A stretch of 64,000 nucleotides of DNA from positions 10,194 through 74,193 of the forward strand of contig CALFAY010000032.1 of assembly GCA_937944855.1 (NCBI GenBank), read 5' to 3'. Within the stretch, counting starts at the first letter, position 1. Each line of letters opens with the position of its first letter. Origin of the DNA: an uncultured Planctomycetota bacterium (GTDB taxonomy: Bacteria; Planctomycetota; Planctomycetia; Gemmatales; HRBIN36). The notes under the pieces were generated by a model. The model ran no database searches. It saw nothing but the letters and a program-made list of their open reading frames with translations, and was not told the origin of the DNA. Below are positions 1,641 through 35,028 of the stretch, piece after piece. A program made the position numbers and the translations under genes.

Positions 1641-1669
1641 TTGACAGGGTGATCTTTCTCACTGACGAT
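1641..1669 (+). promoter_or_regulatory. Sigma70-like promoter candidate for glycine-rich paralog A (TTGACA-N17-GACGAT)
   Basis: TTGACA at 1641-1646, a 17-nt spacer, then GACGAT at 1664-1669, about 100 nt upstream of the ATG at 1772. The same architecture recurs upstream of paralog B. Confidence 0.4.
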
Positions 1670-1771
1670 AGCGTGTCGTTTTCCTGACACTCTGGCGATG
1701 TCATGCCCTCGGGTCGGCCTGACGCGCGGAATCAGGCTGGCCCGAGGGTTATTTGTGTGGAGTGTGCGCAG

Positions 1772-2440
1772 ATGAGACGGAGGCGGATCGGCTGGGCAGT
1801 TTGTGTAGCGGTGATAGTGAGCTGGTCGGCGGGATCCTCGGCCACAGCTTTGGCTCAGCCGGTGCGGAATCCGCCGCCGTTCCGCCCAGGACCTCCCCCG
1901 ACGCCTCCGCTGCCTCCGGGCTTTCCGTCGCGGCCGCCGGACTTCCCGCGGAACCGGATTTCGGCGTTTCAAGGTCCGCCGATCAATCAAAACGGTCAGG
2001 CCCAAGGTTTTGCCGCGGCAGGCCAGGGCGGCTTCGGCGTCGGCGGTCAGGGCGGCTTCGGAGGCTTCGGCGGACTGGGAGGCGGTGGTTTCGGCGGATT
2101 GGGCGGGGGTGGATTCGGCGGTTTCGGAGGTGGACTGGGAGGGTTCGGAGGGGGCTTCGGAGGATTGGGAGGCGGCGGATTCGGTGGGTTCGGCGGTGGT
2201 TTCGGAGGCGGAAAACAATTTGGCTTCGACGGCGGCTTGTTCGACCACGCCTTCCGCCACGGCGTCGGTTTGATCGGTTCCTCCCAGAGCCACGAAGAAA
2301 CTTCAGGACGCCGCGATACGGCCTCCTATCCAGTTTCTTCGCAAACTTCGCTTCCCAAGGCTCCTCCGGCACCGGCCGCCGATTCGACTGCAAGCTCCTT
2401 TCAACCTCAAAAGCTGTGGGTCTTGCCGATCAGTCCTTGA
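1772..2440 (+). CDS. Secreted glycine/phenylalanine-rich (GGFG-repeat) protein with a conserved proline-rich motif, paralog A
   Basis: Start moved to internal ATG 1772 (MRRRRIGWAVCVAVIVSWSAGSSATALAQP is signal-peptide-like). Then PPFRPGPPPTPPLPPGFPSRPPDFPRNRISAFQGPP, a long GGFGG/GGLGG block, FGFDGGLFDHAFRHGVGL, an S/T/P-rich tail and the C-terminus KLWVLPISP. The architecture is shared with the next gene. Confidence 0.75.
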   Translation: MRRRRIGWAVCVAVIVSWSAGSSATALAQPVRNPPPFRPGPPPTPPLPPGFPSRPPDFPRNRISAFQGPPINQNGQAQGFAAAGQGGFGVGGQGGFGGFGGLGGGGFGGLGGGGFGGFGGGLGGFGGGFGGLGGGGFGGFGGGFGGGKQFGFDGGLFDHAFRHGVGLIGSSQSHEETSGRRDTASYPVSSQTSLPKAPPAPAADSTASSFQPQKLWVLPISP

Positions 2441-2535
2441 TCAGGGGTGGAATCTCGCGTAACTATCCCCGAAATCGAGACAAGATTTACTGGAGGCTCC
2501 TGCTGCTCCGACGAGGCAAATCGGTCCGGGATTAC

Positions 2536-2564
2536 TTGACAGGCCAATTCCTGTCGTTGATGAT
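2536..2564 (+). promoter_or_regulatory. Sigma70-like promoter candidate for glycine-rich paralog B (TTGACA-N17-GATGAT)
   Basis: TTGACA at 2536-2541, a 17-nt spacer, then GATGAT at 2559-2564, about 135 nt upstream of the ATG at 2700. It mirrors the element at 1641-1669. Confidence 0.4.
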
Positions 2565-2699
2565 GGAATGTCGGCGAGGCTACATCCTGTGTGAGGTCAT
2601 GCCGACTTGGTAGCACCGCCGATCAGAATTGAGGCCGACGTCGCGGGGCTGACGCTGGCCAAGACGGTCCGGAACACGTCGAGTCTGAAGGGAGCAGCT

Positions 2700-3410
2700 A
2701 TGTCGAAGCCGAACCACCGCTACTTAGTCAGCAGCTTGATTGCCTTTGCCGGACTGATTCTGCTTGTAGCCGAGGCTTTCGCCCAAGGAGGCGGACAACA
2801 AGCCGGCGGATTCGGCGGCAACCGCGGGGTGATTCCGACACCCCCAGCCTTCCGTCCCGGTTTGCCGCCCACGCCCCCGCCGCCTCCAGGATTTCCGTCT
2901 CGGCCAGCAGACTTTCCGCGGAACCGAATCTCGGCGTTCCAAGGGCCGCCGCTCAATCAGGCCGGGCAAATGCAAGGCGGTTTTGCCGCGGCAGGTCAAG
3001 GCGGCTTCGGTGTCGCCGGTCAAGGTGGCTTCGGTGGCCTGGGAGGCGGGGGCTTTGGCGGCGGCTTGGGAGGCGGAGGGCTTGGCGGCTTCGGGGGCTT
3101 TGGCGGCGGCTTGGGTGGCGGTTTTCCCGGTGGCGGTGCTCTCGGCGGCGGATTCTTCGGTGGGTTCGGCGGGTTCGGCGGATTCGGTGGGAAGGCGTTC
3201 GGTTTTGATGGCGGCGTCTTCGATCACAGTTTCCGTTACGGCGTCGGACTCGTCGGGTTCGCGTCCCTACTGGAAGCCGGTAATACCTCGATCCCGACCC
3301 TGCCCGCGGCAGAGCTGAAGATGAAAGAAGACCTTACAGACACCGAAGCAACGCCCGTCAAGGGCACGCCCCTCAGCACAAAGATCTGGGCCTTGCCGGT
3401 CACGGAATAG
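2700..3410 (+). CDS. Secreted glycine/phenylalanine-rich (GGFG-repeat) protein with a conserved proline-rich motif, paralog B
   Basis: Start moved to ATG 2700, preceded by GGGAG (MSKPNHRYLVSSLIAFAGLILLVAEAFAQ is signal-peptide-like). Then PAFRPGLPPTPPPPPGFPSRPADFPRNRISAFQGPP, a GGFGG/GGLGG block, FGFDGGVFDHSFRYGVGL, an acidic/T-rich tail and the C-terminus KIWALPVTE. Confidence 0.75.
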   Translation: MSKPNHRYLVSSLIAFAGLILLVAEAFAQGGGQQAGGFGGNRGVIPTPPAFRPGLPPTPPPPPGFPSRPADFPRNRISAFQGPPLNQAGQMQGGFAAAGQGGFGVAGQGGFGGLGGGGFGGGLGGGGLGGFGGFGGGLGGGFPGGGALGGGFFGGFGGFGGFGGKAFGFDGGVFDHSFRYGVGLVGFASLLEAGNTSIPTLPAAELKMKEDLTDTEATPVKGTPLSTKIWALPVTE

Positions 3411-3437
3411 GCCCCGGATCATTCTCGTTCCACCCCA

Positions 3438-3472
3438 AGGCCCGACGGAATTCCGATCGGGCCTTGTTGTTT
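3438..3472 (+). terminator. Rho-independent terminator after glycine-rich paralog B
   Basis: AGGCCCGA (3438-3445) pairs with TCGGGCCT (3457-3464). An inner CGG/CCG extension surrounds an AATT loop, and TGTTGTTT follows. Confidence 0.55.
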
Positions 3473-5006: not shown

Positions 5007-8000
5007 TCAGGCAACAGCCCGGGGAACAAACGCCTCTTCCTCGCCGAGACCGAGCCGAACGCGGTCCCGGAGGCGTCGCCGGGCTTCGGCATTCTCGGGA
5101 ACCTGCTTCCGTAATTTCCGGAGTATCTCCAAGACCTCTTCCGCCGAGACCGCGGACTCAGGAGCGACCAGGTTGCGGACGATGCTTTGCATGGCTGCCA
5201 GGACCGAAGTCGAGCCTTCTTCAGACCGACCGAGCGTGAGCCAGCGGGCAGCTGCTTTGCCAAGCGCTTTCCAGTCGTCCGGCTCCTGGTGGCGAACGTT
5301 TGTCTCCGGCGAAAGCCACGGCGGTTCGCCAAATCCACAGATGCGCAAGTCGCCTTCTTCCGTGAGCAGGAAGCGGTTCAGGGTCAAGCGCCCGTGGTGC
5401 AGTCCAGCGGCGTGGGCAGCCTTGATTGCGTCCACGGACTGGATCATCAGATCGATCCAAACGTCGGAAGGAGCGGCGAGGTCTGCCCAATCCGTGGAAG
5501 GCAGACCAATGACCCATTCCTGCAAGGCGGCGGGGCAATCTCCGACTTCAAGAACCTCCCACGTGGCCGCCAAGTGCGGATGCCGAACCTGTGCCGCCTT
5601 CTCAAAACCTTGACGGAACTCCTCCCGACGCGATTCCTCAACTTGAGGAGACAGGCAGCGTAAGACGGCCTCCTGACCGCGACGCGGATCGAAGACCCGA
5701 TATACGCTCTCCAGCGGCGTGAGCCAAAGACGGTCCACCACGCGGAGCGGACCAAGCACGAGAGATTCGAGTTGTCCCCCTTCGATCAACTCCATCTGGT
5801 AGGCCGTCAGGTATTCGCCTTCCAAGAGCACTTGCCGCAGCGAACGGTGCCGATGTCGGGCCTCGCGGAGCAGCACCTCCAAGGTGGCCGTGTCGATCAA
5901 AGCCATGTTCAAAAGAAGGTCGGAGAGGCGGCGGTCGTCTTCGCTTGCTTCAACGGAGGTTTCCGCTGCACGGCTGGCGTCGTGGATTGCCAGGACAGGT
6001 TCGGTCCGACGGCCAGACTCATCGCTCGATGCGACGTTGCTCGTTGGCTTTTCTTCCTCTCGTTGCGCGTCTGCCTCGAGGTTGCGATGCACGACCGGAT
6101 CCAACAAGCGATGCTCGGCCAGTTCCCGCAGCTTGGACCGATACCAGCGCTGCATGTCCGCTAGATGGTGATTGATCTCGGCCCGTTGACGGGCTACGCG
6201 GCGCTCCTGATGCTCCAGTTTCTCCGCGCGTCGCGCCAATTGCGACGAAACCGCGTCAATGTGCCTAGCCTGTTGCTCCAAATCCGCCTGTTTGCGTTCC
6301 AAAGCCGATTCGTCCCGGGCCAGACGCGATTTCAGTTCGTTCAACTGTTCCTGCCACTCCAGCAAGGACTGGCGGAACTGTCCGACGGCGGCTCGGTGCT
6401 CTTCCTGCATGCGAACCAAGGCGGCACGTTCCTGTCGCACCTGGTCGGCTTGCTCAGCCACGAGCCGCTGGCCGTTCTCCAACTCCGTCAAAGCCTGCTC
6501 GGTGTAACGATAGAACTCGGACAGATGCCCGCGCAGTTGTTCTCTCGCCCGACTCAGCCGGCCGAGAGTGGCCTGGGCTTCATCGATCAGATTGGGCAGG
6601 GTCTGTCGCAGCAATTCCATCTCCTGACGTTGGCGAGCCAGTTCTTCGATCTGCCGTCGGCGGTCCTCGTCCCAGCGGGCCTTGTCGCTTTCCAACGCGG
6701 CGCGGATACGCTCAATCTCAGCCGCATCGTGACGGGTCGCGGCGGAAGCCGTGGTCAATTCGGCTTCCCGGGCCGCGAGTGCAGCGGCACGCTGATCAAG
6801 CTCATGCTGCCGACGCTGTTGTTCTTCTGCCCAGAGATTTCGCTCTTGCTCCACCTCGGCCAGCCGGCGCGACAATTCGGCTTCAACCTGACCGATAGAC
6901 TGCTCCCGGGCTTCCAGGCGCGATTCGCGCTCGGCCAGGGACTCCGCTCGTTTGCGAAGCTGGTCCTGGAGGGCCTGGCGGGCCTGATCGGCCTGCTCTG
7001 CGGCTGCTTCCCGCTCCAACAACTCCCGCTTCGCCTTTTTTAGTTTGATCCGCAGAGCGTGCAGTTGCAGCAACCGCTTCCGCAACTGCTCGCTTTTCTG
7101 GTCCACCTCCCGTTGGTGGAGTTCCAATTGCTCTTGCAACTGAGCGCGCGCCTGCTGCTCCGTTTCAAAGGTCGCCTGCAACTGGCGCAGGCGGTCCAGT
7201 GCTTCTTCGAGGGTCCGACAGCGGGATTCGATCTGTTCACGTTCGGCTTGCCAGGCGGCCCTTTCGGCTCGCAGGGCGGATTCCTGTTCCGCTTGAAGAC
7301 GCAAGGCTTCCTTCAGACGGCTTTCCATGTCGTCGAGGCGCAACCGTTGCCGAACCAACTGCTCTTCGCGAGCCACCAGTTCCGATTGCAAACGTTCGGC
7401 TCGACTGCGCAGACCGATGAGAACGACTTGCTCAGCGTCGAGCAGGCCGGCCTTGGCGGAAAGCTCCTGCATCGCCCGATCCAGCTCGGCTCGTTGGCGA
7501 GCCAACTCATCGGCTTCCGCTCGAACCCGCTTCTCCCAGTCCTCCACCTGGGAGGCCTGCACTTCGAGTTCGGTGGCCTCCCGGCGGAGCACTTCAGCCC
7601 GTTCGTCCAACTGGCGCGCGCGAACTTCGAGCCGCTCCTGCTCCTCGGCCAACCGAGCTTGCCGTCGTTCGAGATGTACCAGATCGCGGCGGTGCGTTTC
7701 CTGCTCCTGGCGAAGTTGGTCCTGTTCGGAGCGCAACGCCGACTCCGCCGCTTCAAGGCGTTTCTGCCGCTGGTCCAGTTCCTGCTCCGTTTCCCGATGC
7801 CGCTGTTCAAGCAATGCGGCCTGGCGTCGCAGCGTCTGTTTTTCCTCTTCGAGACGGCTTTGCACTTCCTGGAGATGCTGCCGTTGTTCTCGAAGGCCCT
7901 CCATCTCCGCCGCCAACGACTTGCGGTCTGCTTCGAGCTTGCGTTTTTCTTCCTGGACCTTCAGGGCGGCGTGAGCCACCGCTTGTCGCAGAGCAGCAAC

Positions 8001-8780
8001 TGCATCACGCCTCCGGGAGTAATGTTCGTGCAACTCGGTTCGGGCTTTGCGCAGCTCTTCCCGTTCCTGTTCGACCTCGGCCCGTTGAGCGGCCAGGGAT
8101 TCACTGAGCCGGGCCAGGTCCGTGGCTTGGGCATTCAGGAGTCGTTGGCGTTCCGCCACGGCCTGTTCAGAGCGGGCCAGTTCGTTGCTGGCTCTGGCGA
8201 CGGCCTGTTCGCGTTCCAGCAGTTGCCGGGAACGCAGGGCCAACGCCTCGGCCTGGCGTTCGGCGTCCTGTTCCCAATCGCGCCGGTCCTCCTCGAACTG
8301 CCGTTGGGCTTGCTCCAGTTTCCACAGGCCTTCTTCGAGCAGTTTGCGTTGTTGGGCGAAGCTCGGCGGCAAATCCGGCTCTTCGCTTGGCGGCAGCGAG
8401 TAGAAAAGCTGGACCTCAAAGGTGCCAATCTGGAGGCGGTCCTGCGGTCGCAGGAGCGTTTCCGAGCAAAGATTGCCATTGACCAGGAGTGGCAAGGCGG
8501 CAGCGAGCTTGCGGAGCCGGACCCCGCGCGTTTCCCAACTGAGCACACAAATCAAGGGGGGCAGGTCGGCACCAGGCAAGCGGAGATCGCATCCAGCGAC
8601 GGTGCCAAGCACAACGGCCGGTGCCTGCGTCGCCAAGGTGGCAATAACGTGACGCTCCTGACGTAGTTCGAGGCGGAGGACGAACGCGTCCGTCTCCGGG
8701 TTTGGCGTTGCTTTGCGGAATTGGGCAAGCGGAGCAGACTCGGCCATCCTGGCGCTCCAGGTCGGCGGCGCGTATTCCAT
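5007..8780 (-). CDS. Large FHA-domain / long coiled-coil / C-terminal protein-kinase-like (pseudokinase) protein
   Basis: 1257-aa ORF. The N-terminus is an FHA-like segment (VLGTVAGCDLRLPG...VNGNLCSETLLRPQDRLQIGTFEVQLFY). Roughly 800 aa of E/R/Q/A/L heptad-like sequence follow. The C-terminus is a kinase fold with degenerate catalytic motifs: AVLRCL instead of VAIK, GLHHGRLTLNRFLL instead of HRDLKPxN, and ICGFG instead of DFG. An alternative start is Met12 at 8747. Confidence 0.8.
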   Translation of the reverse strand: MEYAPPTWSARMAESAPLAQFRKATPNPETDAFVLRLELRQERHVIATLATQAPAVVLGTVAGCDLRLPGADLPPLICVLSWETRGVRLRKLAAALPLLVNGNLCSETLLRPQDRLQIGTFEVQLFYSLPPSEEPDLPPSFAQQRKLLEEGLWKLEQAQRQFEEDRRDWEQDAERQAEALALRSRQLLEREQAVARASNELARSEQAVAERQRLLNAQATDLARLSESLAAQRAEVEQEREELRKARTELHEHYSRRRDAVAALRQAVAHAALKVQEEKRKLEADRKSLAAEMEGLREQRQHLQEVQSRLEEEKQTLRRQAALLEQRHRETEQELDQRQKRLEAAESALRSEQDQLRQEQETHRRDLVHLERRQARLAEEQERLEVRARQLDERAEVLRREATELEVQASQVEDWEKRVRAEADELARQRAELDRAMQELSAKAGLLDAEQVVLIGLRSRAERLQSELVAREEQLVRQRLRLDDMESRLKEALRLQAEQESALRAERAAWQAEREQIESRCRTLEEALDRLRQLQATFETEQQARAQLQEQLELHQREVDQKSEQLRKRLLQLHALRIKLKKAKRELLEREAAAEQADQARQALQDQLRKRAESLAERESRLEAREQSIGQVEAELSRRLAEVEQERNLWAEEQQRRQHELDQRAAALAAREAELTTASAATRHDAAEIERIRAALESDKARWDEDRRRQIEELARQRQEMELLRQTLPNLIDEAQATLGRLSRAREQLRGHLSEFYRYTEQALTELENGQRLVAEQADQVRQERAALVRMQEEHRAAVGQFRQSLLEWQEQLNELKSRLARDESALERKQADLEQQARHIDAVSSQLARRAEKLEHQERRVARQRAEINHHLADMQRWYRSKLRELAEHRLLDPVVHRNLEADAQREEEKPTSNVASSDESGRRTEPVLAIHDASRAAETSVEASEDDRRLSDLLLNMALIDTATLEVLLREARHRHRSLRQVLLEGEYLTAYQMELIEGGQLESLVLGPLRVVDRLWLTPLESVYRVFDPRRGQEAVLRCLSPQVEESRREEFRQGFEKAAQVRHPHLAATWEVLEVGDCPAALQEWVIGLPSTDWADLAAPSDVWIDLMIQSVDAIKAAHAAGLHHGRLTLNRFLLTEEGDLRICGFGEPPWLSPETNVRHQEPDDWKALGKAAARWLTLGRSEEGSTSVLAAMQSIVRNLVAPESAVSAEEVLEILRKLRKQVPENAEARRRLRDRVRLGLGEEEAFVPRAVA

Positions 8781-31226: not shown

Positions 31227-31239
31227 TTGTAAAGATGGA

Positions 31240-31348
31240 CCCGGCAAGAACCTACTCTCGCGGCAGAAGCCACTACCATCGGCCCTGGAAGCTTAACGGC
31301 CGTGTTCGGAATGGGAACGGGTGTTTCCTTCCAGGTATCGTCACCGGG
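31240..31348 (-). rRNA. rrf: 5S ribosomal RNA
   Basis: The reverse complement reads CCCGGTGACGATACCTGGAAGGAAACACCCGTTCCCATTCCGAACACGGCCGTTAAGCTTCCAGGGCCGATGGTAGTGGC...GAGAGTAGGTTCTTGCCGGG. It contains the conserved CCCATTCCGAACACGG and GGTAGT motifs, and the two ends pair to form helix I. Confidence 0.85.
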
Positions 31349-31690
31349 ATACGCCTGAAAATCTTGAATCGGTTCTAAGGGGCTTATGCAATGCAACGTC
31401 ACTAGCCGATGCACTGGTCTAATTCTTGAAGGCAGAAAAACTCGTAATTGCTTCATCCAGTAAAAAGATTTAGCAACGGGCTAATCAATGGCACGATTAT
31501 ACAACGTTCAAGGCATTTCAAACGTAATACCTATCCAGTTGTCAAACAGCGATGTGACAATAGCGGCAGCGATAAGAAGTCGTCTCAGCGTCAAGCCCCT
31601 GCCGCTGGCAGGTCCGGGATAGGTCCGCAGGTGCAGAGTGTCTGTGGGGCAATCCCGTGACAAGCGGGCACCGGAGCCAAGGATCAATGC

Positions 31691-34508
<2,818 letters not shown>

Positions 34509-34955: not shown

Positions 34956-35028
34956 TGGAGACGACCGGGGTCGAACCGGCAACCTCCGGCTTGCAAAACC
35001 GGCGCTCTCCCAATTGAGCTACGTCCCC
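34956..35028 (-). tRNA. tRNA-Ala (anticodon UGC)
   Basis: The reverse complement is GGGGACGTAGCTCAATTGGGAGAGCGCCGGTTTTGCAAGCCGGAGGTTGCCGGTTCGACCCCGGTCGTCTCCA. It folds as a cloverleaf with anticodon loop TTTGCAA. It has the G3:U70 alanine identity pair. CCA is not encoded. Confidence 0.9.

Follow-up and report, generated by a model that had tools for sequence, protein, structure and literature searches.

Aromatic-glycine cohesive low-complexity domains are known as materials and as permeability barriers of eukaryotes, such as the FG nucleoporins, the YG domain of PEX13, abductin and the glycine loops. In the YG domain of PEX13, which carries no charge, Gly/Ser linkers hold the aromatic residues about 4 residues apart, and the domain makes hydrogels that depend on these aromatics and tolerate the exchange of Y for F, while the linkers of FG repeats are longer (PMC9795577). 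Another elastic material, abductin, consists of GGFGGMGGGX repeats and is secreted as a random-coil protein (PMC9999432). We found no characterised bacterial exported counterpart of such domains. Here we describe two adjacent paralogous genes, A and B, in 64,000 nt of DNA from an uncultured Planctomycetota bacterium (Gemmatales; HRBIN36; CALFAY010000032.1, positions 10,194-74,193; this whole stretch is called the window). Their products are predicted to be exported, disordered proteins with a block of Gly, Phe and Leu (G/F/L block), and we tentatively propose that they form a cohesive mesh in the cell envelope.

A first-pass annotation of the window had proposed both genes and their common architecture, and the coordinates and the architecture hold: gene A at 1772-2440 (222 aa) and gene B at 2700-3410 (236 aa), both on the + strand like all their parts given below. 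Gene A has a Shine-Dalgarno sequence GGAG at 1759-1762, and in gene B GGGAG stands immediately 5' of the ATG. The two proteins are 62% identical in full-length alignment. Each begins with a predicted signal peptide (residues 1-28; nt 1772-1855 in A, 2700-2783 in B), followed by the Pro motif PPGFPSRPxDFPRNRISAFQGPP (residues 35-70, nt 1874-1981 in A; residues 49-84, nt 2844-2951 in B). The block around this motif had been called nearly identical in the two, and it is 84% identical across 44 aa. The G/F/L block comes next (residues 84-148, nt 2021-2215 in A; residues 99-165, nt 2994-3194 in B). It consists of 66-71% Gly, 16-17% Phe and 6-7% Leu, its sole charge is the terminal Lys, and it holds about 15 F/L 'stickers' that are mostly 3-5 residues apart with Gly-only spacers. 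The composition and the number of about a dozen FG dipeptides in each protein (12 in A, 11 in B) stood as first described, but the block is shorter than the 75-90 aa once given, namely 65 aa in A and 67 aa in B, or about 70 aa when the GFAAAGQ lead-in is counted. On the 3' side of the block, both proteins have K(Q/A)FGFDGGxFDHxFR(H/Y)GVGL (KQFGFDGGLFDHAFRHGVGL, residues 148-167, nt 2213-2272 in A; KAFGFDGGVFDHSFRYGVGL, residues 165-184, nt 3192-3251 in B), then divergent S/T/P/E-rich tails (S/T/P-rich in A), and they end with K(L/I)W(V/A)LP plus three residues (KLWVLPISP, residues 214-222, nt 2411-2437 in A; KIWALPVTE, residues 228-236, nt 3381-3407 in B). Alignment confirmed that the FGFDGG block and this C-terminal end are conserved between A and B. 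The mature proteins are of 18.8 kDa with an isoelectric point (pI) of 10.4 (A) and of 19.9 kDa with a pI of 8.3 (B), and Cys is absent from both, while Tyr and Trp occur once in each. No third copy of the gene was found in the window.

Long open reading frames (ORFs) also lie antisense in the window, at 1601-2293 and 2724-3227, and the public gene calls of four contigs of a sister species (L013, L015, L016 and L017) have antisense ORFs of 150 and 171-186 aa in place of A and B on the + strand. These facts would fit the view that the + strand ORFs are artefacts of GC-rich repeats or that the antisense ORFs are the true genes. We compared all six frames of the region with another contig of the sister species, L014 (its contigs L013-L018 have about 83% DNA identity to the window). 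In the + frame there are no stops, and the ratio of nonsynonymous to synonymous substitution rates (dN/dS) is 0.26 for A and 0.11 for B. Four other frames, those of the antisense ORFs included, have ratios of 1.4-2.9 (about 2 for the antisense ORFs), and the single antisense frame with a low ratio has its wobble position in common with the + frame and contains 9 stops. Because only the + frame combines low dN/dS with the lack of stops, we conclude from the substitution pattern that the + strand A and B are real genes under purifying selection. The artefact or antisense view is effectively excluded by this comparison, as far as sequence analysis goes. It is also opposed by the start codon, Shine-Dalgarno sequence, signal peptide, motifs and stop, which are kept in about 15 family genes. 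Moreover, six further pairwise comparisons showed about twice as many differences at third codon positions as at positions 1 and 2. Between the closely related contigs L014 (7138-7860) and L015 (7138-7815), an in-frame indel of 45 nt (15 aa, GGLGGFGGFGGGLGG-like) lies inside the G/F/L block of gene B, so that the repeat is polymorphic in length but stays in frame.

The signal peptides noticed in the first-pass annotation were examined by a heuristic scan, not by SignalP, for a basic n-region, an h-region of 10-15 residues, small residues at -3 and -1, and no lipobox Cys. The features of a Sec-type cleavable signal peptide were found in all ten members scanned (A, B and eight relatives): the n-region is basic, the h-region hydrophobic and the -3/-1 residues small, with a cleavage site of the type A-x-A|Q. 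Cleavage is predicted at ALA|QP for A and at AFA|QG for B, and Gln stands next to the site in most members. None of the ten has a lipobox Cys at the predicted site or a further hydrophobic segment beyond the signal peptide, and the maximal 19-residue hydropathy past residue 45 does not exceed 1.0 in A and B. C-terminal sorting signals (LPXTG/sortase, PEP-CTERM/exosortase, GlyGly-CTERM) were not seen, as only 3-8 residues follow KxWALP and there is no hydrophobic C-terminal segment. A and B are also unlike the outer-membrane lipoproteins Gly-zipper_Omp and Rick_17kDa_Anti, having no such Pfam match and no Cys at the predicted site. A and B are thus apparently exported via Sec. The predicted signal peptide without membrane anchor or lipobox, the sticky aromatic/glycine composition and the basic mature proteins with the above pI values would also suit an extracellular adhesive or a component of the biofilm matrix (holdfast-like) rather than of the envelope proper. 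We regard this as quite unlikely: no secretion-system, glycosyltransferase or adhesin genes are linked to A and B, and their sequences do not separate a periplasmic from an extracellular destination.

In the AlphaFold2 model of protein A, made with the family alignment, no fold was obtained (mean predicted local distance difference test score, pLDDT, 52; predicted template modelling score, pTM, 0.15). The signal peptide was the only helix, and no other secondary structure was predicted. Confidence was raised only in the Pro motif (pLDDT 71-88), which likewise had no secondary structure. Judged by this model, mature A and B are best described as intrinsically disordered.

The first-pass annotation had recognised no characterised family with the layout of A and B, and our searches agree with it. 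A and B had no match in Pfam or NCBIfam at E<=1, none of 11 aligned family members had a match in Pfam, and the family profile had none among the PDB sequences at E<=0.1. By homology, A and B belong to no described family, and their likeness to eukaryotic aromatic-glycine materials is convergent. The glycine loops of keratin and loricrin are similar to A and B in their Gly runs with aromatic or aliphatic residues, which have been proposed to make flexible cohesive contacts, but these eukaryotic proteins are cytoskeletal or of the cornified envelope, are not exported via Sec and have no homology to A and B. FG domains extend over hundreds of residues and are cytoplasmic or nuclear and anchored to a scaffold, whereas the block of A and B is of about 65 aa in a protein with a signal peptide. 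The cohesive FG/GLFG nucleoporins are, like A and B, uncharged, disordered and multivalent in Phe-Gly, and they form selective gels. The likeness to FG domains that had been pointed out earlier holds loosely in composition but not in spacing, as their polar linkers are longer (PMC9795577) than the 3-5 residue Gly spacers of A and B. None of the marks of FG nucleoporins that we looked for, namely long polar spacers, a cytoplasmic or nuclear location on a pore scaffold (the N-termini are signal-peptide-like) and a Pfam nucleoporin domain, was found in A and B.

The YG domain of PEX13 is closer in pattern. It has the same close aromatic spacing, Gly-rich uncharged linkers and roughly a dozen or more stickers, though its stickers are Y while those of A and B are F and L with near-pure Gly spacers. 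On the other hand, PEX13 is a eukaryotic membrane protein with a strictly conserved amphipathic helix and usually a transmembrane segment and an SH3 domain, whereas A and B have a predicted cleavable signal peptide, no anchor, no helix beyond that peptide (AlphaFold) and no SH3 match (Pfam). No sequence homology of A and B to PEX13 was detected. Abductin has in common with A and B a small size, a signal peptide and, as far as predicted for A and B, secretion, together with a Gly content of about 60% and a random coil. As judged from the published repeat, the likeness is compositional: GGFGG units alternate with GG-hydrophobic-GGG units. A and B contain GGFGG(L/F)GG(G) units but no Met and no regular decapeptide when set, unaligned, against that repeat. 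Abductin differs as an animal extracellular matrix protein that has Met, not Leu or Phe, at the second position and has no counterpart of the Pro motif, of the FGFDGG..FRHGVGL block or of the KxWALP end. From these comparisons of sequence pattern, the block of A and B appears closer to the PEX13 YG domain and to abductin than to the FG nucleoporins.

Another comparison is with secreted antimicrobial proteins, in which a cationic Pro/Arg/Phe-rich N-terminal part would precede a Gly-rich part. Insect peptides of the diptericin/attacin type and proline-rich peptides have a similar plan of a Pro-rich part followed by a Gly-rich part, and A and B have the same order after the signal peptide. In addition, residues 1-38 of mature A, around the Pro motif, have a net charge of about +4. 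GGFGG/GGLGG-like runs are found in the secreted Gly-rich antimicrobial peptides, such as serrulin, the acanthoscurrins and the ctenidins, but these are cationic and small (serrulin about 3.6 kDa, ctenidins 8.8-9.6 kDa; PMC6784228). In A and B, by contrast, the block has no internal charge and lies inside a protein of 19-20 kDa with conserved motifs, so that no small cationic Gly-rich mature peptide is recognised in them. There are no adjacent immunity, export or processing genes. The stable core-like synteny and the strongly purifying selection are also unlike the usual variable accessory bacteriocins. An antimicrobial role is very unlikely in our view.

We return to the envelope mesh, which we hold to be possible and favour with caution, because A and B appear to be exported and disordered and have an uncharged aromatic-Gly block, three conserved motifs, a strong-looking conserved promoter, a core-like location and two copies. 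Each gene would be transcribed from its own conserved, near-consensus sigma-70-type promoter. The products would be exported via Sec and cut after A-x-A, leaving an N-terminal Gln. The mature protein of 19-20 kDa would be disordered and probably abundant, and its F/L stickers would make many weak aromatic or hydrophobic contacts between chains, which at high local concentration may give a cohesive, gel-like or rubber-like (elastic) mesh in the periplasm, in the wall or at the cell surface. The three motifs, PPGFPSRPxDFxRNRIS, KxFGFDGG..FR(H/Y)GVGL and KxW(A/V)LP, may link this mesh, by docking or cross-linking, either with folded partners or with one another. That two diverged copies have repeatedly been kept is a hint of a two-component material of A and B. 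We infer export itself, abundance, cohesion or elasticity, docking and the cooperation of A and B from these features. Several points weigh against the proposal. At about 65 aa the cohesive block is short, its cohesion is argued from composition alone, and we found no functional link in the gene neighbourhood. The family is rare: no more than eight of 1.84 billion representative proteins are relatives at E<=1e-10, and a scan of 185,579 species genomes gave one locus confirmed by tblastn among the 100 pattern matches kept; it is therefore no general component of planctomycete envelopes. Two loci, L001 and L011, have a single copy each, which makes a strict requirement for A plus B unlikely.

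The pair is a testable candidate for a non-canonical envelope material, being conserved, apparently strongly promoted and predicted to be exported via Sec, in a lineage whose envelope and internal membranes have long been debated. On the other hand, a matrix or linker protein restricted to one lineage would be of modest and specialist interest. A bolder version would be that the blocks, tethered by the motifs, act as a gel of selective permeability, be it in an envelope pore, in a crateriform structure or in the periplasm, which is enlarged in Gemmatales, and are an independent prokaryotic Sec-exported counterpart of FG/YG phases. We consider this highly improbable. In the paper on nuclear-pore-like structures of Gemmata, the only FG item is an unrelated FG-containing beta-barrel candidate (10.1101/076430).

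The first-pass annotation had staked its proposal on the recurrence of the non-repeat blocks in related genomes, and they are indeed conserved there. A nine-member profile gave 57 matches at E<=0.001 among the representative proteins, and the eight strong ones are P0002, P0001, P0005, P0008 and P0010-P0013. These and the inspected weaker matches P0014, P0015, P0017 and P0022 have a common plan of signal peptide, RxPPxxRPxxPPxPP, Gly-rich block and (K)xFGxxGG...(F/Y)R(H/N)G(V/I)G, while the remaining weak matches that we inspected look compositional. No eukaryotic relatives were among the significant profile matches. In alignments the three conserved motifs are kept across family members. The distant P0009, P0012 and P0022 keep the N-terminal RxPPxxRPxxPPxPP and (F/Y)RNG(V/I)GL, and their repeats have more A and fewer F. 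This pattern would fit another explanation, that the short motifs are the functional part, for example by binding to a protease, to a transport machine or to a partner in the periplasm or outer membrane, and that the G/F/L block is a mere linker or entropic spacer. Conservation is much stronger in the motifs than in the block, which drifts in length and order, and the Pro motif alone has raised confidence in the AlphaFold model. However, a plain linker needs neither F/L every 3-5 residues nor the exclusion of charged and polar residues across lineages, and dN/dS is low over the whole genes. We consider the linker explanation unlikely, though it is the alternative to take most seriously beside the mesh.

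Protein A is identical to P0001 (NCBI/ENA), whereas the exact sequence of protein B is not in a collection of 15 billion proteins. A homologue search with full-length B gave at least 9 matches among 8000 candidates, proteins that share low-complexity sequence. The scan of species genomes with the GGKQFGFDGG pattern, in which tblastn confirmation was probably hampered by low-complexity masking, gave its single locus in the metagenome-assembled genome (MAG) Gemmatales bacterium SKYG27, where the upstream genes are the same as in the window. A scan of metagenomes gave 600 pattern matches, none of them confirmed. With a degenerate DNA pattern for FPxRPxDFxRxRIS, we found seven stretches in JGI metagenomes, and four of them encode family members: L020 and L024 (both P0004), L022 (P0002) and L023 (new). 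The other three, L019, L021 and L025, were rejected as chance matches to the pattern. Taken together, these searches indicate that the family is rare and lineage-restricted, and it looks confined to Gemmatales-like planctomycetes. It is also under-counted in protein databases, and the exact B is missing from them, because gene callers often take the antisense ORFs. Surveys of protein databases will under-count a family that is so systematically mis-annotated.

In the survey of copy number and synteny, tandem pairs were seen in three lineages besides single-copy loci, which on the sequences compared indicates that pairing is recurrent. In L007 and L002 a gene of the P0003/P0004 type is followed by one of the P0002 type, in L003-L006 P0009 is paired with a 192-aa paralogue, and in L009 and L010 P0012 is paired with a 201-aa paralogue. 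In the tree of the conserved blocks, the paralogues group by lineage, yet the B-specific signature GGFPGGGxLGGGFFGGFGGFGG is shared across lineages. These two patterns conflict, and either a single ancient duplication followed by partial homogenisation or several separate duplications may have given rise to the pairs. The duplication of A and B itself is old, not recent: 129 of the 209 aligned third codon positions differ (62%), and synonymous sites are near saturation.

The same promoter-like element precedes each gene, TTGACA-N17-GACGAT at 1641-1669 for A and TTGACA-N17-GATGAT at 2536-2564 for B (both on the + strand; the latter with 10/12 consensus positions). The combined form TTGACA-N17-GA(C/T)GAT has exactly two matches in the 64 kb, both here, while 0.03 are expected. 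A relaxed form, TTGAC-N17-(T)GAnnAT, is found 5' of all 15 family genes examined (11 loci), at -117 to -132 from the start in A-type or first genes of pairs, at -156 to -164 in B-type genes and at -83 to -184 in distant members; by a simple estimate that assumes uniform composition, its chance in a 300-nt upstream region is less than 1%. The first-pass annotation was right about the two elements, but its reading that the duplication carried the regulatory region along needs revision. The element is maintained by selection and is not a passive leftover of duplication, because it is kept in 15 of 15 genes although the synonymous sites of A and B are near saturation. Accompanied by a leader of about 100-130 nt, the near-consensus sigma-70-type promoter makes A and B each look like a transcription unit of its own.

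The leader of gene A (1670-1771, + strand) can form two mutually exclusive hairpins, and its minimum free energy (MFE) of -55.6 kcal/mol is low compared with shuffled sequences (z = -5.35). One is a terminator-like 18-bp stem at 1705-1749 (+ strand), followed by UUAUUUGUGU just 5' of the Shine-Dalgarno sequence. The alternative hairpin pairs 1695-1707 with 1716-1727 (+ strand) and uses the 5' arm of the 18-bp stem. L008 and L001 retain the stem with its U-run and show three compensatory pairs in it. Four sequences share the alternative hairpin, and the arrangement of two hairpins is conserved in L014, L008 and L001. The leader looks like a small attenuator, on thin evidence from few sequences. 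At E<=1, the only Rfam match of the locus was a chance one to sX13, with 19 bits where the gathering score is 50. The leader of gene B and the spacer between A and B had no more structure than shuffled sequences, and the alignment-based structure of B leaders was weak (-4 kcal/mol); therefore we claim no leader RNA element shared by both genes. No terminator-like structure was found between A and B. The strong terminator described earlier after the pair was recovered as a hairpin at 3436-3466 (+ strand) followed by UUGUUUG, 3' of gene B; it was missed by a simpler scan, and the 73-nt stretch that contains it has an MFE of -26.7 kcal/mol (z = -2.64). We also observed that GTCATGCC is common to both leaders (1695-1707 in A, 2594-2606 in B) and that in the A leader it is one arm of the conserved alternative hairpin. 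A GACGTCA-like core lies at the equivalent place in L001 and 5' of the second gene of L007. As a start codon, GTCATGCC was rejected, since ATG 1703 has no counterpart in L014 and ATG 2600 meets a stop.

A Zn-dependent oxidoreductase (Zn-ADH) gene is syntenic upstream of the family genes in the window, L008, L001, L007 and L013-L018. This gene ends separately, and the family genes are each preceded by a promoter-like element of their own. The downstream genes vary by lineage (ROK kinase, amidase or UvrC). On the contigs compared, A and B keep a stable syntenic position beside housekeeping genes (Zn-ADH, ROK, UvrC) and are not in a mobile or toxin context. In the sister species, the neighbours are genes of PSCyt1/PSCyt2/PSD1 and DUF1501, families typical of planctomycetes. 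Together with the nearest genome match, the Gemmatales MAG, they bear out the planctomycete host assumed in the first-pass annotation. The P0009 and P0012 pairs lie directly 3' of a same-strand gene of about 1240 aa with FG-GAP/ASPIC repeats (L003:6135-9854, L009:4150-7860), and beyond them, on the other strand, are genes of the futalosine pathway of menaquinone synthesis (CofH_C, VitK2_biosynth).

Elsewhere in the window, a 1257-aa ORF on the - strand (5007-8780) has a weak FHA-like N-terminal match (Yop-YscD_cpl) under the Pfam cut-off, a very long coiled-coil-like stretch rich in E, R, Q and L, and a C-terminal region that is kinase-like by eye, with no Pfam kinase match. This ORF is conserved beside CbiX and ROK in the sister species. 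The whole window lacks a 16S rRNA gene, which leaves the 23S-5S unit unlinked to 16S within these 64 kb, an arrangement common in Planctomycetota; the genes for 5S rRNA (31239-31348), 23S rRNA (31689-34508) and a tRNA (34956-35028) are all on the - strand.

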